Made by a program: the position numbers and the translations under genes. This document shows positions 37,088-64,000 of a DNA stretch of 64,000 nucleotides, in pieces. Location: the NCBI GenBank assembly GCA_000092065.1, contig CP000583.1; one strand, written 5' to 3'. The notes below the pieces were generated by a model. It did not search any database. It saw nothing but the letters and a program-made list of their open reading frames with translations, and was not told the origin of the DNA. The DNA comes from Ostreococcus lucimarinus (Eukaryota). Every line of letters begins with the position of its first letter. The first letter of the stretch is position 1.

Positions 37088-38482
37088 TTAAATGTCGATC
37101 GACTCCTTCGTAAAAGCCGGCATTTCGAAGGCGGAGGCGAACGCCTCGACTTCGTCGCGCATGGCGGCCACCTTGGGGTTGTTATCGAGACCTTTCTTCC
37201 AGTCTTTGAGCATCTTTCCATGGCTCTTTTGCACTTCTAAGCACAAATCGGCGGCGCGGGAGAGGAATTCGGCGATTTGCACAAAGTCCGACTCCACGAG
37301 ACCGCGAGACGTCATCGCAGGGGCGCCGATGCGCACGCCACCCGGAGAAAGCGCACTTGCGTCGCCGAACACCGCATTCTTGTTCAAAGTAATGTGCAAA
37401 AGATCGCACAGGTATTCCATCTTGCTCCCAGTCAAACCGAGCGGGCGCAAATCCCAAAGCACCAAGTGGTTATCCGTACCGCCAGTGACGAGGTTGTAGC
37501 CCTTGGACACCAACGTTTCGCCCAACGCTCTGGCGTTCGCCTTAACTTGCTTGATGTACGTCTTGAACTCAGGGGTTTGCGCATACTTGAGCGCGACCGC
37601 CAACGCGCCGATTTGGTGGTTGTGCGGACCGCCTTGCAGCGCTGGAAAGACGGCCATGTTGATGCGCGATTCGTAGTTGTAATCCTTGCCCGTCTTCGCG
37701 TTGACGCCGCGGCGGAAGAAAATCATCCCCGAACGCGGACCGCGAAGAGACTTGTGCGTCGTCGTCGTCACGATGTCACAGTATTCGAACGGTTGTGCTT
37801 GTTCTTCCGCGGCAACCAAACCGGAGATGTGCGCCATATCCATCATCAACATCGCCCCGCACTTGTCGGCAATTTCCCGGAAACGTGCGTAATCCCAATC
37901 TCTCGCGTACGCCGAACCACCGCAAACGATCATCTTCGGTCGGAAATCCATCGCCTTTTCTTCGAGCTTATCGTAATCGATGTACCCAGTCTTCGGGTCC
38001 ACCTTGTACGGCAAAGATTCAAAGAAAATTGACGTCGCCGAAATCTTCTTCCCGTTTGAGTTGTAATATCCGTGCGTCAGGTGTCCACCGCTCGGCAGAT
38101 CCAATCCCATGATTCGATCGTGCGGGTTCAACAACGCCGTGTACACCGCCATATTCGCCGGCGATCCACTGTACGGCTGCACGTTCACCCCCCATTCCTT
38201 CTCGTCCAGGCGATACGCCGCCAACGCTCGCCTCTGGCACAGCGTCTCCACTCGATCGATCACCTCGTTCCCACCGTAATACCTCGCCCCCGGCAACCCT
38301 TCCGAGTATTTATTCGTCAACGCGCTTCCCAGCGCTTCCATCACCGGCGCGGACGTGAAATTCTCGCTCGCGATGAGCTCGATGCCACCGATTTGCCGGC
38401 GCTTTTCGAGTTGAATCAGATCGTACATCTCCTTGTCCGCGCTCTTCAGCGGCGCGAGCGCTTCGGGGAAGACGCGATTCAT
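37088..38482 (-). CDS. SHMT: Serine hydroxymethyltransferase
   Basis: ORF 37088..38506. The listed start is a TTG and the first ATG is at 38482 ([53 protein letters not shown]...). The protein also contains the PLP-binding stretch [19 protein letters not shown] and a C-terminus typical of eukaryotic SHMT. Confidence 0.92.
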
Positions 38483-38694
38483 GGCGGGCGATGATCGCGA
38501 TGTCAAGCGACGGCGCGCGCGGCGGGAGTCGCGACGCGGGAGTCGCGCGTCGGTGTGACGCGCCGTCGCGGCGCGCGTGTGATTTTAGTAAAAACCCGCG
38601 TGTGGTAAAATCACACTCGCGCGCGCGCCGACGACGAAAGTTTCGCGACGGTTCGGTTGGAAGTTCGATCGTCGCACGCGCGAGCGCGCGCGAC

Positions 38695-55993: not shown

Positions 55994-56614
55994 GAGCGCG
56001 CTCGCGGAGATCTGGTCGTCGAAAGTCGCGCTCGGTCAGCGCCTCGTCGTCGCCTCGTCGGCGCGCGTCCGCGCGTCGCGCGCGCGCGCCTCGACGCGTC
56101 GCGCCGCGGGGCGTCGCGGAGGGCGTCGCGTCGCGCGCGCCGTCGCACCTCGTCGCCGGACGCCGCGCCGGGCGCCATCGCGCGTCGTCGTCTGTCGCGC
56201 GCGTTTCGCGACGCACTGCGCGACGCGCGTCGGGCATGGAGCCGCGCGCGCGCGGCGCGGCGGCGCGGCGGGGGAAGGCCAAGGTGCGCCGCGACGAGAC
56301 GCGCGACGCGCGACGCGCGACGCGCGCGACGAGGGCGCGCGCGACTGATTTCGATTTGATTCGCGACGCAACAGCTCGACGCATTTCGCGCGCGGGAACG
56401 CGGCGACGCGCGCGCGGACGCGTCGAACGATGGACGACGGACGATTGACTTGGCGCGCGCGACGCGCGACGGCGCGCGCGACGCGCGAAGCTCGAGCGAC
56501 GGCGCGGTGGACGCGACGACGACGGCGACGGCGACGACGGCGGCGGCGGCGGCGCGCGCGACGGACGACGCGAGCGAAGACGCGAGCGAAGACGCGCGGG
56601 ATGAGTTCGAGGAA

Positions 56615-58165
56615 ATGCGAGGGGTGCTCGAGCGCGCGCGAGCGGAGGCGCGTCGGGCGCGAGAGGAGACGGCGATGGTGAAGGCGGAGCTCGCGGTGCT
56701 GAGGCGGAGCGCGAAGGAGGCGAAAATGTCGGCGGACGCGGCGAAGGGCGCGGCGGACGAAGCGAGCGGGAGTCGAGCGGTGTTGGAGGCGCGCGCGGTG
56801 GAGGCGGAAGAGGCGCGAGAGAGAGCGGAGAAGGCGCTCGATGCGGCGGAGACGGAGGCGAGGGAGGCGCGACTCGCGCTGGACGCGGCGCTCGCCGAGT
56901 CGGAGGAAGCGAGAGCGGCGCGGGCGGACGTAGAACGACGATTAGAGGTCGCCACCGCGCGAGCGACGGACGAGGAGCGAGAAAAGTCACGTTTCGATGA
57001 AATTATTCGCGAACGCGACGCGGCGCTGCGCGCGAGCGAGACCGCGAACGCGAGATCGCGAAGTTTAGAATCCGCGTTGGCGGAGTCGCGCGAGGAGCAG
57101 CTTCGCGCCGAGGAGGAAGCTATGCAGCTTCGGCGAGATTTAGACGAGAGCCGCGAGGAGCGACGACGCGCTCGCAGTGACGGCGCAATTTCGGCCGTGA
57201 ACGACGACGGGACGAGCGCGGGCGACGTGGACCGGCGAAGGGGGCAATTTGTCGCCGACGAGGACATCGCGGCGCAGCAGGAGGAAAAGTACGCCTTGCT
57301 CGCCGAGTTACAAACGGAACGTCGCCGTCGCATCGAAGTCGAGGCCGAGCTCGAGGACGTGATTAACACGCAAAATGATATGAATGCGCGCGCGGAAACC
57401 GCATCGCGCATCGCCGCGGTGGCGGAAGGCGAGGCGGACGATTACCGCGCGCGCGTATCGGAGACGGAAAAGGCGACGAGGGCGGCGAAACGTTCGGCGA
57501 CGGCGTTCGAGAGCCGCGCGGTGAAGGCGGAGAGCGCCATCGCTGCCGTCAAGCTCGTTATCGGCGAATCCGAAGACGCGAAGCACAGCGACGACGAGCT
57601 GCACCTCCGCGTCCGAGCGTACGTCGATCGCAAGACGCGGCGGGCGGACGCCGCGCTCGCCGACGCCCTGGAAGAGGCCCAACTTTTGCGCTCAAAGGCG
57701 AAACAGATGGGTGAATCCCGCGTCACCGACGCCGCGAGCGTCGACGACCGCGTGCTCAAACTCGCGGAAGTTCGCGACAAGCTCGTGGAAGAGATGAACG
57801 CCCAATCCGCCGAACTCGAACGCGCCGACGCCGAGATCGAGACCCGCGCCGACGCCGTCGCCGCCGCGCGCGACGAAATCACCGACCTCGAGCTCAAGCT
57901 CGCCTCTTCCAACGCTCAAAACGCGCGTCTGATCGAAATCATCGAGGAACAGGGCCGATGGTCCGCCGCCGAGCCGTCCTCGAGCGTCTCCGCGTCCTCC
58001 GCGGCGCGCGCCGCCGTCTCCGCCCCCGTCACCCCCGTCAAATTCGCGCCTCGTCGCGCCGACGTTCGCCGTCGAGACCTCGCCGCCGACGTCCTCGGCG
58101 ATCGCAAGGCGCTTCTCGCTCGCATCGAGGCGCGCTTGCTCGAGATTCACGCGCTCCAACGTTAA
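56615..58165 (+). CDS. Long coiled-coil protein (E/A/R/K-rich heptad-like repeats)
   Basis: ORF 56450..58165. The listed start is a TTG and the first in-frame ATG is at 56615 (MRGVLERARAEARRAREETAMVKAELAVLRRSAKEAKMSADAAKG...). An upstream out-of-frame ATG ORF lies at 56430..56681. Many GAA and AAG codons argue for real coding. Minus-strand ORFs 55858..57411 and 57442..57912 are shadows. Confidence 0.45.
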   Translation: MRGVLERARAEARRAREETAMVKAELAVLRRSAKEAKMSADAAKGAADEASGSRAVLEARAVEAEEARERAEKALDAAETEAREARLALDAALAESEEARAARADVERRLEVATARATDEEREKSRFDEIIRERDAALRASETANARSRSLESALAESREEQLRAEEEAMQLRRDLDESREERRRARSDGAISAVNDDGTSAGDVDRRRGQFVADEDIAAQQEEKYALLAELQTERRRRIEVEAELEDVINTQNDMNARAETASRIAAVAEGEADDYRARVSETEKATRAAKRSATAFESRAVKAESAIAAVKLVIGESEDAKHSDDELHLRVRAYVDRKTRRADAALADALEEAQLLRSKAKQMGESRVTDAASVDDRVLKLAEVRDKLVEEMNAQSAELERADAEIETRADAVAAARDEITDLELKLASSNAQNARLIEIIEEQGRWSAAEPSSSVSASSAARAAVSAPVTPVKFAPRRADVRRRDLAADVLGDRKALLARIEARLLEIHALQR

Positions 58166-58208
58166 TTCACGCGCGACCGACCGCCCACCAGCCGCCATTC
58201 GAGACGAT

Positions 58209-58511
58209 TCACCGCTCGCGCTCGAACGCGCGCTCGGCGTCCTCGTACGCCTCTCGCACGCGATCGCACACCGAGATGACGTCCAACAGCGCGTCCCGCA
58301 TCGCGCCCTGCGCCGTCGTCCCGTTCGCGCCCGTCGTCTGCACGCGCACGCGCGCCTCGCGCTTCATCGGATGCGGCACCGAGTACCCGCACAGCGCGAC
58401 GTCCGCGTTGCCGTTCAGCGCGTGTCGCAGCGCGTTCGCCAGCGTGTGGTCCTCGCCCGCGAGCGTGAAGGTGGCCTCGTTGGACGTCGCGGCGCGGCGC
58501 GGCGCCGTCAT
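58209..58511 (-). CDS. RNA polymerase Rpb11 / AC19-type dimerisation subunit
   Basis: A 100-aa ORF with a real ATG at 58511. It reads MTAPRRAATSNEATFTLAGEDHTLANALRHALNGNADVALCGYSVPHPMKREARVRVQTTGANGTTAQGAMRDALLDVISVCDRVREAYEDAERAFERER. The EDHTLGN...F.GY..PHP...IRIQT core motifs of the Rpb11/RPAC2 family are present. The N-terminus is about 20 aa shorter than typical, so an upstream exon is possible. Confidence 0.7.
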   Translation of the reverse strand: MTAPRRAATSNEATFTLAGEDHTLANALRHALNGNADVALCGYSVPHPMKREARVRVQTTGANGTTAQGAMRDALLDVISVCDRVREAYEDAERAFERER

Positions 58512-59022
58512 GGCGACGACGACGAGTGCGGGGGCGAGGGACGCGGTTCGAGGACGCGTCGTCTCGGCGACGCGAGGCGCGGGAGACGGGCGGCGACGCG
58601 CGGCGACGCGCGCGGGACGGCCGGGACGGATGCACGTGCCGAGCGACGCGTTTCAGGGACGGTCGCCGGAGATCGCGGCGAGGGACGCGCTCGGGAGGCT
58701 GTTCACGGCGGTGGCGGCGCGCGCGACGCTGGCGGAGACGCTCGAGCGCGAGGGCGCGGAGAGCGAGACGTATCTGGCGTTGAAAGCGTACGTGGACGCG
58801 CATCCGATCGGGAGGGACGGGAACGATTGGTTGCGGGGACTGATGGCGCGCGACGACGCGGGGAGTCGCGCGGCGGGGTTGCGCGTGTTGGAGGCGCGAG
58901 AGACGTACGCGAACGAGGTGTTTTCGTTCGAGGAGGTGCGGGAGATGGTGGAGAAGGCGGTGACGGAGGAAAACGATAAGTTGATGGCGGATTACGTGAA
59001 GAGAATGCTGCCGAAAATGTAA
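58510..59022 (+). CDS. RBCX: RbcX, Rubisco assembly chaperone (plastid-targeted)
   Basis: This is the C-terminal 170 codons of ORF 57958..59022, from the ATG at 58510 (MATTTSAGARDAVRG..., a transit-like leader). The core reads ARDALGRLFTAVAARATLAETLEREGAESETYLALKAYVDAHPIGRDGNDWLRGLMARDDAGSRAAGLRVLEARETYANEVFSFEEVREMVEKAVTEENDKLMADYV. This is collinear with plant RbcX (ALRNLFTFVALKIVLAQLEGYNPEAYNDLMDFMGQNPLGDGDKFLTDLMRRSSRHMNLALRILEVRSAY...NTRLMREYV). Confidence 0.7.
   Translation: MATTTSAGARDAVRGRVVSATRGAGDGRRRAATRAGRPGRMHVPSDAFQGRSPEIAARDALGRLFTAVAARATLAETLEREGAESETYLALKAYVDAHPIGRDGNDWLRGLMARDDAGSRAAGLRVLEARETYANEVFSFEEVREMVEKAVTEENDKLMADYVKRMLPKM
59018..59022 (+). terminator. TGTAA poly(A)-signal motif overlapping the RbcX stop codon (aaaaTGTAAgct)
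   Basis: The TAA stop at 59020-59022 is the 3' part of TGTAA. Confidence 0.4.
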
Positions 59023-59074
59023 GCTATGAGTACAGATTAATGAATATTACACTATGACTATGAATGCGTCGCGT

Positions 59075-62000
59075 TCAGCACAAGTAACCGCGACAGTTGT
59101 CGGCGCCGCAATAGCACGGCACTTTGCCGTCTTCGCTTTCGAATCTGTAGTTGTACGTCAGCTCTTCCCCGGGCCGAACGTCGGTTCGAGCGAAAAAGAT
59201 GATGTGATTCGCGTCGTCTACTTTGACGATTTTTGAGTACATGTTCGGGTTGCAGCTGTGATTGGTGAATCGCGCAAAGTTTCCTTGAAACGTGCAATCG
59301 ACGACGGTGTCGTCGTCTTGTTTTAAGAGGTAGCAATCCACTCCGTTATCTTCGTAAAAGGTTTCGCGAAGATCCGCGACGGTGCTTCGACACGTCTCGC
59401 CTTTGAACTGCGTGACGATGGAACCCGCCTTGTGGAAAACCTTGGCCACCAGTCCCCATCCGTGTATGTTGGATTTGGCGAACGTGAGTCTATCGGAGTA
59501 CGACGCCGTCATTTGTTCGAGCTTCTCTCGCATCGTGAGCCCATGCTGTTCGACGACTTTATCATCCGAAGCGCCGTTCACGCCCCTAGCCTTGCGCTCC
59601 GCTTGTACCGCCGCAAACTCTTCGGGCGTGTACTTTTTTGAAGCAATCAACTCGCGCTTGAAGGCGCCTCGCGACCCGCGCACGATGTACGGCGTAAGTC
59701 CGACGTACAGACGTTTTCCTGTCTTCGGCGGTGGTCCCGTAACCTTGGCGTTTTTGTCGTTTTTATTCAATCCAAGACGCTTGTACACGTTGGCTTGAAT
59801 TTCTTCGAGCTGCTTGCGGCTGAGATTTCTCTGGTGTCCGAGCGATTTGGCGGACAGGTCAACGGTTTTTTCGCGCCGGATTTCGCATCCCCACACCTCG
59901 AGCCATTTTCCAAGCGACATTACCGTTCGGTTATTGAGGACGACTCTGATGTGATGGCTCCACTTCTTCGGTCCTTTCACTCCAATGTGGGCTTCAAACC
60001 GCGACCTCTCGTGGTACACCGGCCCTTGGTCGCTATCGACGCACGCTCGACACAGACATTCGATTCGTCGCGTTTGTACGTGATATGTCCCAGATACACC
60101 TTTGCATACGACGCTCACCATCGCTGGCAAGTCATCGGGAACGTGCGTACGAACGGCGTCTTCGTCTTCCGATTCTTCGTCGTCTGAACCCTCCATGTAC
60201 GGAGCGTTATCACCAAGCGCGATGCGTCGATCGATCTCGTCGTCCTCAAACTCTTGAGGCACTGAACACACCGAAAATGCGGCTTCAGGATTTTTCTGAC
60301 ACGTCCACATGTCGGCATCATCGGCAGATAACTTCTCCGCAAAACTTTGAGGGACGCGCCGCCACTTCCCGCACGACGGGTTCTCGCACTGCACCCAAGC
60401 CTCTTTCTCACGAGGCTTTTTCGGCCGCCCGAGTTCCGCGATCTTGGCGCGGTCTGCGGGATTAGACGGTCGTTTTGCTGATGTAAATTGTGCGTTGGCG
60501 ATCGCCAGTTGCGTCTCAAGTTGTGTGTTTTTGCCAGAGCTTAATTTTGCGGCTTCAGGCAAAAACGACAAATCCGGTGCCTCGCCATCGACGAATTTCA
60601 AATTTTGCGCATCACGCGTAAACGATATCATCAAGTCTGTCCCATCGTCGAAAATGACTTTATACCGAATGCCAGTGCGCGTTATCGTGACGTCAATCAT
60701 CGTTCCGTCTTTCCAGTCCGGTGCGAGAATGGTACCGGTGTCGATTTGCACGCGGCGTCCAACGAGAGCTCTTGCTCGAGTCTCTTCGCCGCTCTTATCT
60801 TCCAACTTGTCGTCTTCAAATGTTCCCAGACCGAGACCGAGGAGTGCGTGCGTACGCGAAGCTTTGGGCCGTTGGGCTTTTGGTTTTGCCGACATCGACG
60901 CAACCTTGGCCGTTTTTCCAGTATTCGCGAGCACGACGATATTGTGATCGGTAAGCCAATCACCGAAAGCTTGCTCGCCACCGTTATCGTCGACGACGAC
61001 TCTGATTGACGTTTTCCATTTCTTGGTGTGCTTCATACCCGCGTGCTGCTCCCATCTGTTCGCTTCCCACAGAGTCGTCGCGTCAGAGTTCGTGGCTTCG
61101 GCCTCACGTCTGCACCGTCCGCAGAGACATTTGATCAACGTATCTGCTGGTCTAAATATTCCTCTAAACGTCTTGCAGTAAATGTTTACTTCGGGAATAT
61201 CCGGACGCGGAACGTTTCCTTCAGGTACGGGTAAGCCGCCGGGAAGTGCCGGGTACTTTGCTTCCGGCAACTTTGCTTGCAGCGCCAACGTCGCACTCTG
61301 AGGTGAGCTCTCGGAACGCTCTGATACGGTTTTACGTCTCTTTGATTCCGGAAACGTCGTTGAGGGATCTAATTTGGCATCGGCATCCTCCACGGCATCC
61401 TCGGCGTCTGTTTTACCGCCTTCGGCATTGTCGTCGTCGTCGTCGTCTGTTGGATCGGCGTCGTACTCAACGTCGAGATCTGTCGAGAGTTCTGCGTCGT
61501 CGTCGTCGTCGTCATCCTGCAATAAGTCTTCAGTAGTTTCCATGGTATCGACGCGTTGATGCGCGATGACGTCGTCTTTTGTATGCACCATGTCTGTATC
61601 AGCACGTTCCGTCATGTCGTCGTCGTCGTCGTCATCCTCGTCGTCGTCGTCGTCGTCGTTCTCGTCCTCGTCGTCCGCGTGCAAGACCCGTTTACGAACT
61701 CGATACTTCTTCGTTCCTGACCCGGGAGCGTCGGGATTTTCTTCGTTTTCGTCCTTGATGTCCGCCTCCGTCCTCGGATGACCAAGTTGCTCGTAACGAC
61801 GGAACTTTGCGCAGTTCATGAAGTCTGTCTCAGAGTCTGAGCTCAACTCTGGCTCATCAGCGAGCGTCGCGGATGCTTCTCGTCTCTCGCGCTCTTCTGT
61901 TTCCGCGCGCATCTCCGCCTTGGTACGTTTTCGTTCCTTATTGGCACCACACTCCAACAGCCGTCCCTCCTGGCCGATCTTCAAGCCCTCTGTGCCGGCG

Positions 62001-63865
62001 TAAATTTGTGCGCGCTCGACGTCGACACGACAGTGTCTATGACAGTACGACAGTAACTGTAATGGCGATTCATCATCGTCGCCATCGTCGTTGGCATCCA
62101 TGTACAAACCAGTCGCGCGCGCGCACAACGGATGATACGCGATGTAGCAACCCGGATGACAGCATTGGATTTTCGCGCCCATGCGTTGCTTACAGACCGT
62201 GCACAAGAGCGACCAGCGTTCTTTTTGAATGTTTGCGATGTTATCGATGGGCTCCATGCGCTCGATATCAAGCACGGTGGTCTCGGGTATCCATTGGCAG
62301 CACGCGCTGTGCGCCCAGAGCGAAGGAATCGTCGTCGGTTTGAGCGCACCGCCGGCGACGGGACACAAACAACACAAGGGTGTTTCGCTCACTGCACCAC
62401 CGGTGTGCTCGCACGAACGACACAGCCAACCGACGGTGTCGTCTGGTATGTCTGGAACACCGTAGCAAGACTGATGCACCGTCACCGCGCACGCCTCGCA
62501 CGTGATGAGCTGGTCAAAGTCGAAGTCGCGCTCATCGTCGCACACCGCACACCGATCGACGCTCCAACTCACTTGCACGATTTCGTAATCCAGCGAAGCA
62601 TTTTCATCGTCCTCGGTATGTTGATCCCTACGAGCGTTGAAATCATTGCCGTCCAAGAAACGTCCTATGGGCATCTTTGCCGGCTCAATCATTCTCAAAG
62701 ACGCCTTCCACTTTTTCGCTTGCCCCATGCCAGCGTGCTTTTCGAACTCAGTCGGCGTCATGTACTTGTTCGTTCCTGCGCAATCCGAGCATTGACACAT
62801 CACTTGATTCAAGCGCGTGTAATAGTCTGCGGCCACGCCGTTACAAATCACCGCAAGTGTCTCTGGCAACTCGTTCCCGTCGCGAAGCTTGGAAATATCA
62901 CCCGCCTTGGAGCGACGCGACGCCTTGCTCGCATCGGGGTTTCGTTCCGTCTTCACCCTCGCTGCGTGCGCGTCTGGGTTCAAGATTTTATCGTAACGCT
63001 TTCGCTGCTGGTCGTCGAGCTCGCCGCTCTCAAACATCTCCGTGATCATCTCTCTAAATCGCTCCGCCTCATCTCTGGCGAGCTCCTCGTATCTCTCGCG
63101 CTCTGACGCGTCAATCTCGCGCCACGCCGCACCCTGCTCGCGATAGACCGCGGCGAAATCTATGTTATCTTCGCCGTTTTCGTCTTTGTACTGTTGGAAG
63201 AAATCCGCGGCGAAGAGCTGCCACGAACTCTTCGGTCGTTTGGGCACGGTGTTTTGCTTCTTCGACACTGCGTGCGGCGATTTCATCGTCCCCGCTCGCA
63301 CCGAGGCTGAGGAAGAACCCTTTAGGAGTTTATCCAGCGTTGGCATGCGCCTCAGCAGCATTTTAGCCTCTTTCATCTCCTTTGAAGGTCGACCGACTCG
63401 AGGTTTGCTGAGAAGTTTTTCCAAGCGCTTGCGCTCTCGAATCTGCGCCTTGCGTTCAGCCTCGACGCGCGCTTGCTCCGCGAGTCTCGCCTCCGCGGCG
63501 ATCTGCTCGGGAGTTTTACTTCTACACACCGGACACGCGTACGGAATATCCTCATCCTCACCGTTTTGTTCTCTATCCAACACCTCCGCCGCCACGGCGT
63601 CGCATTCGCGATGAATCCACATCTCGCATCGATCGCACCCCACCATGGCGTCGCCCGCGCTCCAGTGCCACACTCGATCGCACACCGGACAGAACTGACC
63701 CTCTTTGTGCAACTTTCTGCACAGCGCGCAGAGCCCATTCGAGTTTTTCGATCGCAACGACTCGTCATCCGTCACGCCGCACGACGCGCACCGACGCGTC
63801 GCCAGCCGCTCCGCCGGCGCGCTGCACGGCAACCCGAACGAGTCCTGTAATCCCAGCACCCCCAC
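59075..63865 (-). CDS. Trithorax-group (MLL/ATX-like) histone-lysine N-methyltransferase: N-terminal PHD-like finger, HMG box, PHD and extended PHD, CW-type zinc finger, acidic repeats, C-terminal SET and post-SET
   Basis: A 1596-aa ORF. The SET and post-SET region reads KSNIHGWGLVAKVFHKAGSIVTQFKGETCRS...GNFARFTNHSCNPNMYSKIVKVDDANHIIFFARTDVRPGEELTYNYRF...VPCYCGADNCRGYLC. The HMG box reads PKRPKSSWQLFAADFFQQYKDE...YREQGAAWREIDASERERYEE. The PHD reads CAVCDDERDFDFDQLITCEACAVTVHQSCYGVPD...WLCRSCE. The CW finger reads WVQCENPSCGKWRRVP...DMWTCQ. (GAC/GTC)n-encoded D/E runs occur near 61440..61680. The listed start at 63865 is a GTG, and the first in-frame ATG (aa 74) cuts a zinc-finger motif, so the true N-terminus is upstream and unresolved. 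Confidence 0.82.
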   Translation of the reverse strand: MGVLGLQDSFGLPCSAPAERLATRRCASCGVTDDESLRSKNSNGLCALCRKLHKEGQFCPVCDRVWHWSAGDAMVGCDRCEMWIHRECDAVAAEVLDREQNGEDEDIPYACPVCRSKTPEQIAAEARLAEQARVEAERKAQIRERKRLEKLLSKPRVGRPSKEMKEAKMLLRRMPTLDKLLKGSSSASVRAGTMKSPHAVSKKQNTVPKRPKSSWQLFAADFFQQYKDENGEDNIDFAAVYREQGAAWREIDASERERYEELARDEAERFREMITEMFESGELDDQQRKRYDKILNPDAHAARVKTERNPDASKASRRSKAGDISKLRDGNELPETLAVICNGVAADYYTRLNQVMCQCSDCAGTNKYMTPTEFEKHAGMGQAKKWKASLRMIEPAKMPIGRFLDGNDFNARRDQHTEDDENASLDYEIVQVSWSVDRCAVCDDERDFDFDQLITCEACAVTVHQSCYGVPDIPDDTVGWLCRSCEHTGGAVSETPLCCLCPVAGGALKPTTIPSLWAHSACCQWIPETTVLDIERMEPIDNIANIQKERWSLLCTVCKQRMGAKIQCCHPGCYIAYHPLCARATGLYMDANDDGDDDESPLQLLSYCHRHCRVDVERAQIYAGTEGLKIGQEGRLLECGANKERKRTKAEMRAETEERERREASATLADEPELSSDSETDFMNCAKFRRYEQLGHPRTEADIKDENEENPDAPGSGTKKYRVRKRVLHADDEDENDDDDDDEDDDDDDDMTERADTDMVHTKDDVIAHQRVDTMETTEDLLQDDDDDDDAELSTDLDVEYDADPTDDDDDDNAEGGKTDAEDAVEDADAKLDPSTTFPESKRRKTVSERSESSPQSATLALQAKLPEAKYPALPGGLPVPEGNVPRPDIPEVNIYCKTFRGIFRPADTLIKCLCGRCRREAEATNSDATTLWEANRWEQHAGMKHTKKWKTSIRVVVDDNGGEQAFGDWLTDHNIVVLANTGKTAKVASMSAKPKAQRPKASRTHALLGLGLGTFEDDKLEDKSGEETRARALVGRRVQIDTGTILAPDWKDGTMIDVTITRTGIRYKVIFDDGTDLMISFTRDAQNLKFVDGEAPDLSFLPEAAKLSSGKNTQLETQLAIANAQFTSAKRPSNPADRAKIAELGRPKKPREKEAWVQCENPSCGKWRRVPQSFAEKLSADDADMWTCQKNPEAAFSVCSVPQEFEDDEIDRRIALGDNAPYMEGSDDEESEDEDAVRTHVPDDLPAMVSVVCKGVSGTYHVQTRRIECLCRACVDSDQGPVYHERSRFEAHIGVKGPKKWSHHIRVVLNNRTVMSLGKWLEVWGCEIRREKTVDLSAKSLGHQRNLSRKQLEEIQANVYKRLGLNKNDKNAKVTGPPPKTGKRLYVGLTPYIVRGSRGAFKRELIASKKYTPEEFAAVQAERKARGVNGASDDKVVEQHGLTMREKLEQMTASYSDRLTFAKSNIHGWGLVAKVFHKAGSIVTQFKGETCRSTVADLRETFYEDNGVDCYLLKQDDDTVVDCTFQGNFARFTNHSCNPNMYSKIVKVDDANHIIFFARTDVRPGEELTYNYRFESEDGKVPCYCGADNCRGYLC

Positions 63866-64000
63866 CTCGTCTTCGCGCTCGCCCTCGCGCGAGCCATCGT
63901 CGCCGTCGAGCCCCTTCCCGTCCCCCCCCCGATCGTCGGCTCTCCCTTCGCTCTCCGTCGCCCCGACGTCGTCCTCGTCCGCCGCCGCCGCCTCGCGCGC

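Follow-up and report, generated by a model that had tools for sequence, protein, structure and literature searches.

Overlapping transcription has reportedly been found in the compacted genomes of microsporidia and nucleomorphs. Overlapping transcription units and untranslated regions (UTRs) are also already known in Ostreococcus (PMC2367439, PMC4378021). In O. lucimarinus, 8.9% of expressed sequence tag (EST) clusters were over-clustered via overlapping units on opposite strands (Lanier et al., PMC2367439), RNA-seq assemblies of O. tauri concatenate owing to overlapping UTRs (Blanc-Mathieu et al., PMC4378021), and 2288 bidirectional transcript pairs have been counted in the latter species (PMC4035068). 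Here we consider a stretch of 64,000 nucleotides from O. lucimarinus (NCBI GenBank assembly GCA_000092065.1, contig CP000583.1), referred to below as the window, in which two genes lie head to head at positions 58,209 to 59,022. The minus-strand gene is predicted to encode AC19/RPAC2, a subunit of RNA polymerases I and III, and the plus-strand gene a Rubisco assembly chaperone of the RbcX family. The two probably begin at initiator codons that overlap each other on opposite strands.

This locus has much in common with compacted Ostreococcus, microsporidian and nucleomorph genomes, namely shrunken intergenic DNA, concatenated cDNA assemblies and, if both starts are correctly placed, overlapping mRNAs of neighbouring genes and promoter and UTR functions carried by adjacent coding sequence. 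The EST study of O. lucimarinus treats overlapping 3′ transcript ends in the context of its over-clustering check (PMC2367439), whereas here it is divergent coding sequences that overlap, and they do so at their initiator codons. As in other bidirectional gene pairs, the genes are divergent, their starts are very close and the arrangement has been kept throughout the group examined. A classical bidirectional promoter, however, is a stretch of non-coding DNA tens to hundreds of bp long, and the spacer between AC19 and RbcX measures -2 bp. A literature search of incomplete coverage returned no report of two divergent coding sequences whose initiator codons interlock, and nothing specific on mapped start sites in Mamiellophyceae. 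Overlapping units and bidirectional pairs are known from the most compact free-living eukaryotic genomes (PMC2367439, PMC4378021, PMC4035068), and the locus therefore represents no new kind of biology. What is particular here is the geometry of the interlock, its retention in two lineages and the correction to the RbcX annotation that comes with it.

Geometry and conservation of the overlap

The plus strand at 58503-58518 reads CGCCGTCATGGCGACG, with CATG at 58509-58512 flanked by t at 58508 and g at 58513. A minus-strand open reading frame (ORF) at 58209-58511 encodes 100 residues, from a start codon at 58511..58509 to a TGA stop at 58211..58209, and a plus-strand frame of 170 residues runs from the ATG at 58510-58512 to the TAA at 59020-59022. 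The two ATGs share nucleotides 58510-58511, inside the CATG palindrome, and given start assignments at 58511 (minus) and 58510 (plus) the coding sequences themselves overlap on opposite strands. The original prediction, made from the letters of the window alone, had described overlapping initiator ATGs with no intergenic space between the genes. The CATG overlap is confirmed in the O. lucimarinus window at the coordinates given there, and the interlocking starts do leave a spacer of -2 bp. We consider it likely that both ATGs are real starts and that the promoter and UTR of each gene are located in the coding sequence of its partner. The features on which the argument depends are as follows.

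58209..58511, minus strand: AC19/RPAC2, shared subunit of RNA polymerases I and III; complete 100-residue single-exon coding sequence, equal to XP_001416869 / A4RTY9
58510..59022, plus strand: RbcX-II Rubisco assembly chaperone; proposed full-length coding sequence of a 170-residue precursor, from the Pfam RbcX match and the evidence for an upstream start
58510..58629, plus strand: 40-codon presequence and putative chloroplast transit peptide, MATTTSAGARDAVRGRVVSATRGAGDGRRRAATRAGRPGR, with the conserved GRPGR at its end
58630..59022, plus strand: 130-residue RbcX form of the reference annotation (XP_001416578 / A4RTZ0) and of metagenome gene callers, corresponding to the mature RbcX domain
58509..58512: CATG palindrome with both initiator codons, 58510-58511 being common to the two
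58372..58509, plus strand: predicted interval for the RbcX transcription start and 5′ UTR, inside AC19 codons 1-47, under a scanning model
58512..58800, minus strand: interval within the RbcX coding sequence in which AC19 transcription is predicted to start, with its 5′ UTR

The palindrome alone is unremarkable, as about one third or more of the minus-strand starts in this G+C-rich window precede a G, and CATG is also seen at gene starts in SHMT (38480-38483) and in the relatives L010 and L022. What goes beyond chance is that RbcX is in frame with the ATG at 58510, that this ATG opens an uninterrupted frame and that no other ATG could supply the N-terminal presequence encoded in all 10 related lineages; between the AC19 start and 58630 there is no other in-frame ATG in O. 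lucimarinus.

A sister lineage (L024/L029) was recovered by a metagenome scan anchored on the conserved N-terminus of mature RbcX. Its AC19 and mature RbcX are ~91% identical in amino acids to those of the window (matching P0025 and P0002), and it carries the same 2-nucleotide CATG overlap, in frame, reading GCCGTCATGCGCGCG. The presequence of this lineage, MRAARSAATEAVGDARDARARTGRTRGGAGRARREARRRAGRPGR, has ~50% nucleotide identity to that of the window and is five codons (15 nucleotides) longer, with an open frame and no other candidate ATG. Within O. lucimarinus-type contigs CATG is identical in 10 of 10. Since the overlap is kept in the sister lineage and in all ten contigs, the arrangement is stable and cannot be put down to the assembly of a single strain. 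In all related loci where it could be read, the order of genes is Frag1, coiled-coil gene, AC19 (minus), RbcX (plus) and SET/PHD gene (minus). Along the locus, nucleotide identity to the sister lineage is near-perfect at 58287-58361 and at 58624-58743 (the first 40 codons of mature RbcX) and only ~50-55% in the presequence and in the stretch across the 3′ spacer. The two near-perfect blocks may harbour regulatory signals or may owe their identity to strong codon bias.

In the same orthologous pair the distance between the AC19 and RbcX starts forms a graded series.

O. tauri, three strains: 297, 220 and 198 bp
L016 type: 265 bp
L021 type: 92 bp
L022: 81 bp
L010: 78 bp
L007: 74 bp
L030: 68 or 11 bp
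L018, both starts pinned by in-frame stops: 32 bp
L009: 13 bp
O. lucimarinus and sister lineage: -2 bp

When the DNA is aligned, the CAT of the AC19 start lines up throughout, and O. lucimarinus just has no spacer. In L009 the relative frame is that of O. lucimarinus, with CATC in place of CATG and the ATG 15 nucleotides further on. Judged from these comparisons, the locus is the extreme end of a continuum of spacer loss in a conserved bidirectional pair: AC19 and RbcX-II form a conserved head-to-head arrangement whose intergenic spacer has, in the lineage of O. lucimarinus, fully collapsed. The O. tauri spacer consists of an 11-bp tandem array, CGACCGGTGCT, in ~21 copies (L015 2744-2977, chromosome 3; also L013 and L014), and its length differs among three O. 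tauri-type records (spacers of 198, 220 and 297 bp).

The start of RbcX

The plus-strand product matches Pfam RbcX (PF02341) with an E-value of 3.4e-10 and 40.6 bits against a cut-off of 27, over residues 61-166, and its best solved relatives are CrRbcX-IIa (5bs1, 7e-14) and AtRbcX1 (4gr2, 5e-11). It is predicted to be a nuclear-encoded RbcX-II Rubisco assembly chaperone. RbcX works in the stroma on RbcL, itself encoded in the plastid, and a nuclear-encoded RbcX needs an import signal. With green algal and plant RbcX-II the protein shares the Pfam family, nuclear encoding, an N-terminal extension and the mature N-terminus R-M-H-[VI]-P-x-D-[AS]-F; in CrRbcX-IIa the first two conserved blocks stand further apart than in O. 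lucimarinus. R125 (58882-58884, in GLRVLE) aligns with R118 of CrRbcX-IIa (in LALRLME), so that the arginine is kept in the window. R118 is indispensable for in vitro assembly; its equivalent is Ile in the sister lineage (P0002) and Leu in the L009 type (P0004).

The reference annotation holds a 130-residue "predicted protein" (XP_001416578 / A4RTZ0) that begins at the internal ATG at 58630 and leaves a gap of 118 bp to AC19, and the overlap therefore appears only if RbcX truly starts at 58510. Exact look-ups of public assemblies found no record of the 170-residue form. The original prediction had cautioned that a start at 58630 would remove the transit peptide, and the protein left by such a start is exactly the XP_001416578 model. 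Crystallised mature CrRbcX-IIa (residues 34-156) begins MHIPADSF and aligns residue for residue with M41-HVPSDAF of the window. With M41 aligned to Met34, the part upstream corresponds to the Chlamydomonas transit peptide. One Chlamydomonas annotation likewise began RbcX-IIa at residue 34 without a transit peptide (PMC4549274), as the public annotation does here by starting at the internal Met. CrRbcX-IIa(34-189), which is missing Arg33 only, is inactive, and this position has a conserved Arg or Lys (Bracher et al. 2015, PMC4549274). The equivalent in the window is R40, within GRPGR|M, and it is present only if translation begins at 58510; the GRPGR just before the internal Met is conserved at the protein level in distant relatives. 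Translation from 58510 would thus give a 170-residue precursor in which a 40-residue Arg/Ala/Thr-rich transit peptide is followed by R40-M41-HVPSDAF.

Comparison among relatives also points to the upstream start. The "Chaperonin-like RbcX" of O. tauri (157 residues) has GTG, encoding Val, at the position of the internal Met, and its own ATG is preceded by an in-frame stop. An open in-frame ATG lies 25-53 codons upstream of the mature N-terminus in 10 of 10 distinct lineages, at positions that differ between lineages, and in shuffled leaders such an ATG arises by chance with a probability of 0.05-0.28 per lineage. The ATGs in these leaders number 15, 5 and 3 in frames 0, 1 and 2, respectively. 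The ATG at 58510 has a strong context (GTCATGG, with a purine at -3 and G at +4), and that at 58630 a weak one (CGGATGC, with C at -3 and C at +4). The 40 codons of the presequence include 10 R, 9 A, 7 G and 5 T, with a net charge of +8.

It may be asked whether the reference is right, such that RbcX starts at 58630, the 118 bp at 58512-58629 are a non-coding bidirectional promoter and 5′ UTR, and the ATG at 58510 merely results from a G that happens to follow CAT. CATG is common at gene starts and the RbcX domain is complete from about residue 48, both of which suit this reading, and a series of further observations weighs against the upstream start. The metagenome gene calls for RbcX all choose 58630, as XP_001416578 does, and 9 of 10 lineages retain the internal Met. 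The presequence is close to intergenic DNA in its rate of evolution. Its R/A/G-rich composition is also what any translated DNA of 80% G+C gives, and its G+C fractions at codon positions 1, 2 and 3 (0.78, 0.85 and 0.78) are uninformative because Arg, Ala and Gly codons dominate. The product of the chance probabilities for the upstream ATGs, ~3e-8, overstates their significance because the lineages share ancestry. One of five environmental contigs of an L021-type lineage (L023) has a stop at presequence codon 12 (CGA>TGA), which is either an error or a rare allele; if real, this allele would force use of the internal Met, suggesting that the internal RbcX start can sometimes suffice. Finally, a MMETSP cDNA contig that spans the junction, described below, is taken by us to be unstranded and cannot show which mRNA crosses from AC19 into RbcX.

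Against a start at 58630 stands the established biology of a nuclear-encoded Rubisco chaperone, which could not reach the stroma without a presequence. The 130-residue form would also be without R40, the equivalent of a residue on which in vitro activity depends. O. tauri lacks an ATG at the internal position, the upstream ATG is open and in frame in all ten lineages, the sister lineage keeps the frame across a 15-nucleotide change in length, and the context of the internal ATG is weak. We regard the reference start as unlikely to be correct, and the comparative evidence indicates that the reference RbcX model is N-terminally truncated, without the putative import signal and Arg40. Some initiation may still take place at 58630 via leaky scanning.

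Position 58523 (RbcX codon 5, ACG) is a common C/T polymorphism, with ATG (T5M) in 4 of 10 O. lucimarinus-type contigs and in the MMETSP strain. T5M creates a second in-frame start 12 nucleotides downstream of 58510; counted from there, the spacer to AC19 would be 10 bp. T5M may be recurrent, since it falls on a CpG; the sister lineage has AGG there.

The AC19 N-terminus and transcript starts

The minus-strand product is identical to the O. lucimarinus CCE9901 protein XP_001416869 / A4RTY9 and matches Pfam RNA_pol_L_2 (PF13656) with an E-value of 3.6e-24 over profile positions 1-74 of 75 and residues 12-87, meaning that the domain is complete. It had been labelled "Rpb11/AC19-like" by the original prediction, of which the AC19 half stands and the Rpb11 half does not. 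A profile of the 10 Mamiellales orthologs scored the three solved RPAC2 chains at 92.4, 91.8 and 80.8 bits and the best Rpb11 chain at 66.4; an Rpb11 identity is ruled out by this search (81-92 bits for RPAC2 vs at most 66 for Rpb11), and the named homologs of the protein are RPAC2. By these sequence comparisons the gene is that of AC19/RPAC2 of RNA polymerases I and III, not Rpb11. With yeast Rpc19 and human POLR1D it shares the Rpb11-like dimerisation domain and the motifs EDHTLxN and CGYSVPHP.

The same prediction had found the N-terminus about 20 residues short, and had offered an unseen upstream exon as one way out. Measured against solved AC19 of fungi and human the tail is indeed short, with 11 residues before the domain vs 57 in yeast, 25 in fission yeast (S. 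pombe) and 38 in human (domain onset at residues 58, 26 and 39, respectively). Measured against its own relatives it is not: AC19 orthologs in 10 Mamiellales lineages are 97-104 residues long, with the Met aligned and the N-terminus alike, and the tail of archaeal Rpo11 is as short as that of O. lucimarinus. A hidden AC19 exon is not needed, because the short N-terminus is common to all close relatives. Between the upstream stop at 58653-58655 and the AC19 domain, 58511 offers the only in-frame ATG, and the next Met is residue 49, within the domain.

An exon upstream of one of the genes, for instance AC19 spliced from beyond 58600 so that only a last exon takes part in the overlap, would accommodate the longer tails of 25-57 residues in yeast, fission yeast and human, and introns are present in 20-25% of Ostreococcus transcripts (PMC2367439). 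The completeness of the Pfam domain, the aligned Met of the ten lineages and the equally short archaeal tail argue against it. In L018 both starts are closed off by in-frame stops, 15 nucleotides upstream of the AC19 ATG and 6 nucleotides upstream of the RbcX ATG, and in the NCBI record of O. tauri both genes are simple single ORFs (AC19 of 97 and RbcX of 157 residues). The spacers of 13-92 bp in relatives are also too small for an exon and an intron. An upstream exon is thus very improbable, and AC19 would be translated from the codon at 58511..58509 as a complete protein of 100 residues.

If both ATGs are starts, there is no non-coding DNA between AC19 and RbcX, and each mRNA must therefore begin inside the partner gene. 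The nearest plus-strand ATG upstream of 58510 is at 58371, out of frame, and the in-frame one is at 58276; on the minus strand there is no ATG between 58511 and 58803..58801. Under the first-AUG rule, RbcX transcription would start in 58372-58509, i.e., within AC19 codons 1-47, and AC19 transcription in 58512-58800, i.e., within the RbcX coding sequence. These ATG-free zones of 138 (plus) and 289 (minus) nucleotides serve as bounds only, as by a composition estimate they are not clearly beyond chance at 70-80% G+C. The first alternative of the original prediction, in which promoter and 5′ UTR of either gene are located within its neighbour, fits this evidence. The RbcX and AC19 mRNAs would then have complementary 5′ ends, and a shared bidirectional promoter would be built of coding sequence. 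RNA interference (RNAi) genes appear to have been lost in O. tauri (PMC9871001). A similar loss in O. lucimarinus, presumed by analogy, would remove one cost of complementary 5′ ends and is consistent with tolerance of the antisense overlap. AC19 codons 51-75 (58287-58361) show 0 synonymous differences from two lineages, although counts are small, G+C content at third codon positions (GC3) is 0.95 and this is the most conserved part of the protein. Embedded promoter elements might lie behind the depressed synonymous divergence, for which codon bias is an equally good explanation.

The MMETSP cDNA contig contains a "complete" ORF of 354 residues (protein P0066), 352/354 identical to the window at 57958-59022 (plus) and kept in public protein collections as an MMETSP protein. 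The assembly runs from the 3′ end of the coiled-coil gene, antisense through AC19, into RbcX, crossing CATG, and exact look-ups of public assemblies have no record of the 354-residue product. Concatenation of this sort is what Blanc-Mathieu et al. ascribe to overlapping UTRs in O. tauri (PMC4378021), and Lanier et al. met the same effect in O. lucimarinus EST clusters (PMC2367439); these observations may lend indirect support to overlapping AC19 and RbcX transcripts, although the contig, taken to be unstranded, is prone to concatenation. We conclude that the 354-residue ORF is an artefact of concatenated transcript assembly and of an open antisense frame in G+C-rich coding DNA. That RbcX is instead made from a longer read-through transcript starting deep in or beyond AC19, with an ATG at 58276 (248 residues, an ATG also found in L024 and L009) or at 57958 (354 residues, the length of the MMETSP ORF, and the point back to which the RbcX frame is open antisense through AC19), is highly unlikely, given that an antisense frame is expected to be open where the coding sequence has a GC3 of 0.95, that in-frame stops occur at or just after the AC19 start in L021, L007, O. 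tauri and L018, that a transcript starting in 58277-58371 would meet the out-of-frame ATG at 58371 first, and that the 354-residue ORF overlaps the 3′ end of the coiled-coil gene, as is typical of concatenated unstranded assemblies (PMC4378021).

Neighbouring features and implications

On its outer sides, the pair is bounded by two further short spacers.

58166..58208, no strand: 43-bp tail-to-tail spacer between the coiled-coil gene (56450-58165, plus) and AC19
59023..59074, no strand: 52-bp A+T-rich tail-to-tail spacer between RbcX and the SET/PHD gene (59075-63865, minus)

UGUAA is the poly(A) signal of green algae. TGTAA overlaps the RbcX stop at 59018-59022 (plus), and a second TGTAA is located at 59047-59051 (minus), just past the stop of the SET gene; the two may be the poly(A) signals of these convergent genes. 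At the end of RbcX, G+C falls abruptly from ~0.71 to 0.50-0.57 (59030-64000). The SET/PHD/HMG/SAND/zf-CW chromatin gene that follows (59075-63865, minus), which runs off the window, has a GC3 of 0.62 vs 0.75-0.95 in its neighbours.

Twelve head-to-head pairs are callable by GC3 within the window, most of them 147-610 bp apart. SHMT (37088-38482, minus) and a GLDH-like gene, nominally 8 bp apart, were considered as a second tight case and not counted because downstream of the first ATG of the GLDH-like gene comes an A+T-rich inverted repeat of intergenic appearance. This repeat, TGTGATTTTA...TAAAATCACA (38570-38615), is inside the nominal N-terminus of the GLDH-like protein, which suggests that its true start is further downstream than its first ATG.

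A further reading is that a stable, fully coding bidirectional promoter has been kept in at least two Ostreococcus lineages, and that the antisense 5′ overlap, or a very short RbcX leader, has a regulatory consequence. We hold this to be doubtful. Under it, one possibility is transcriptional interference coupling AC19 to RbcX; a second is leaky scanning past AUG 58510 to AUG 58630, giving plastid-targeted and untargeted RbcX, which T5M would modulate.

As the 130-residue RbcX model and its metagenome copies stand, localisation prediction or protein expression from them would mislead. More generally, any gene finder that does not allow overlaps will, in ultra-compact eukaryotic genomes, systematically cut short one member of a pair like this. 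The natural series of spacers from 297 to -2 bp for one orthologous pair offers a system in which to study the minimal size of a bidirectional promoter. It also asks whether coding DNA alone can carry promoter signals, a question that is testable since O. tauri is transformable.

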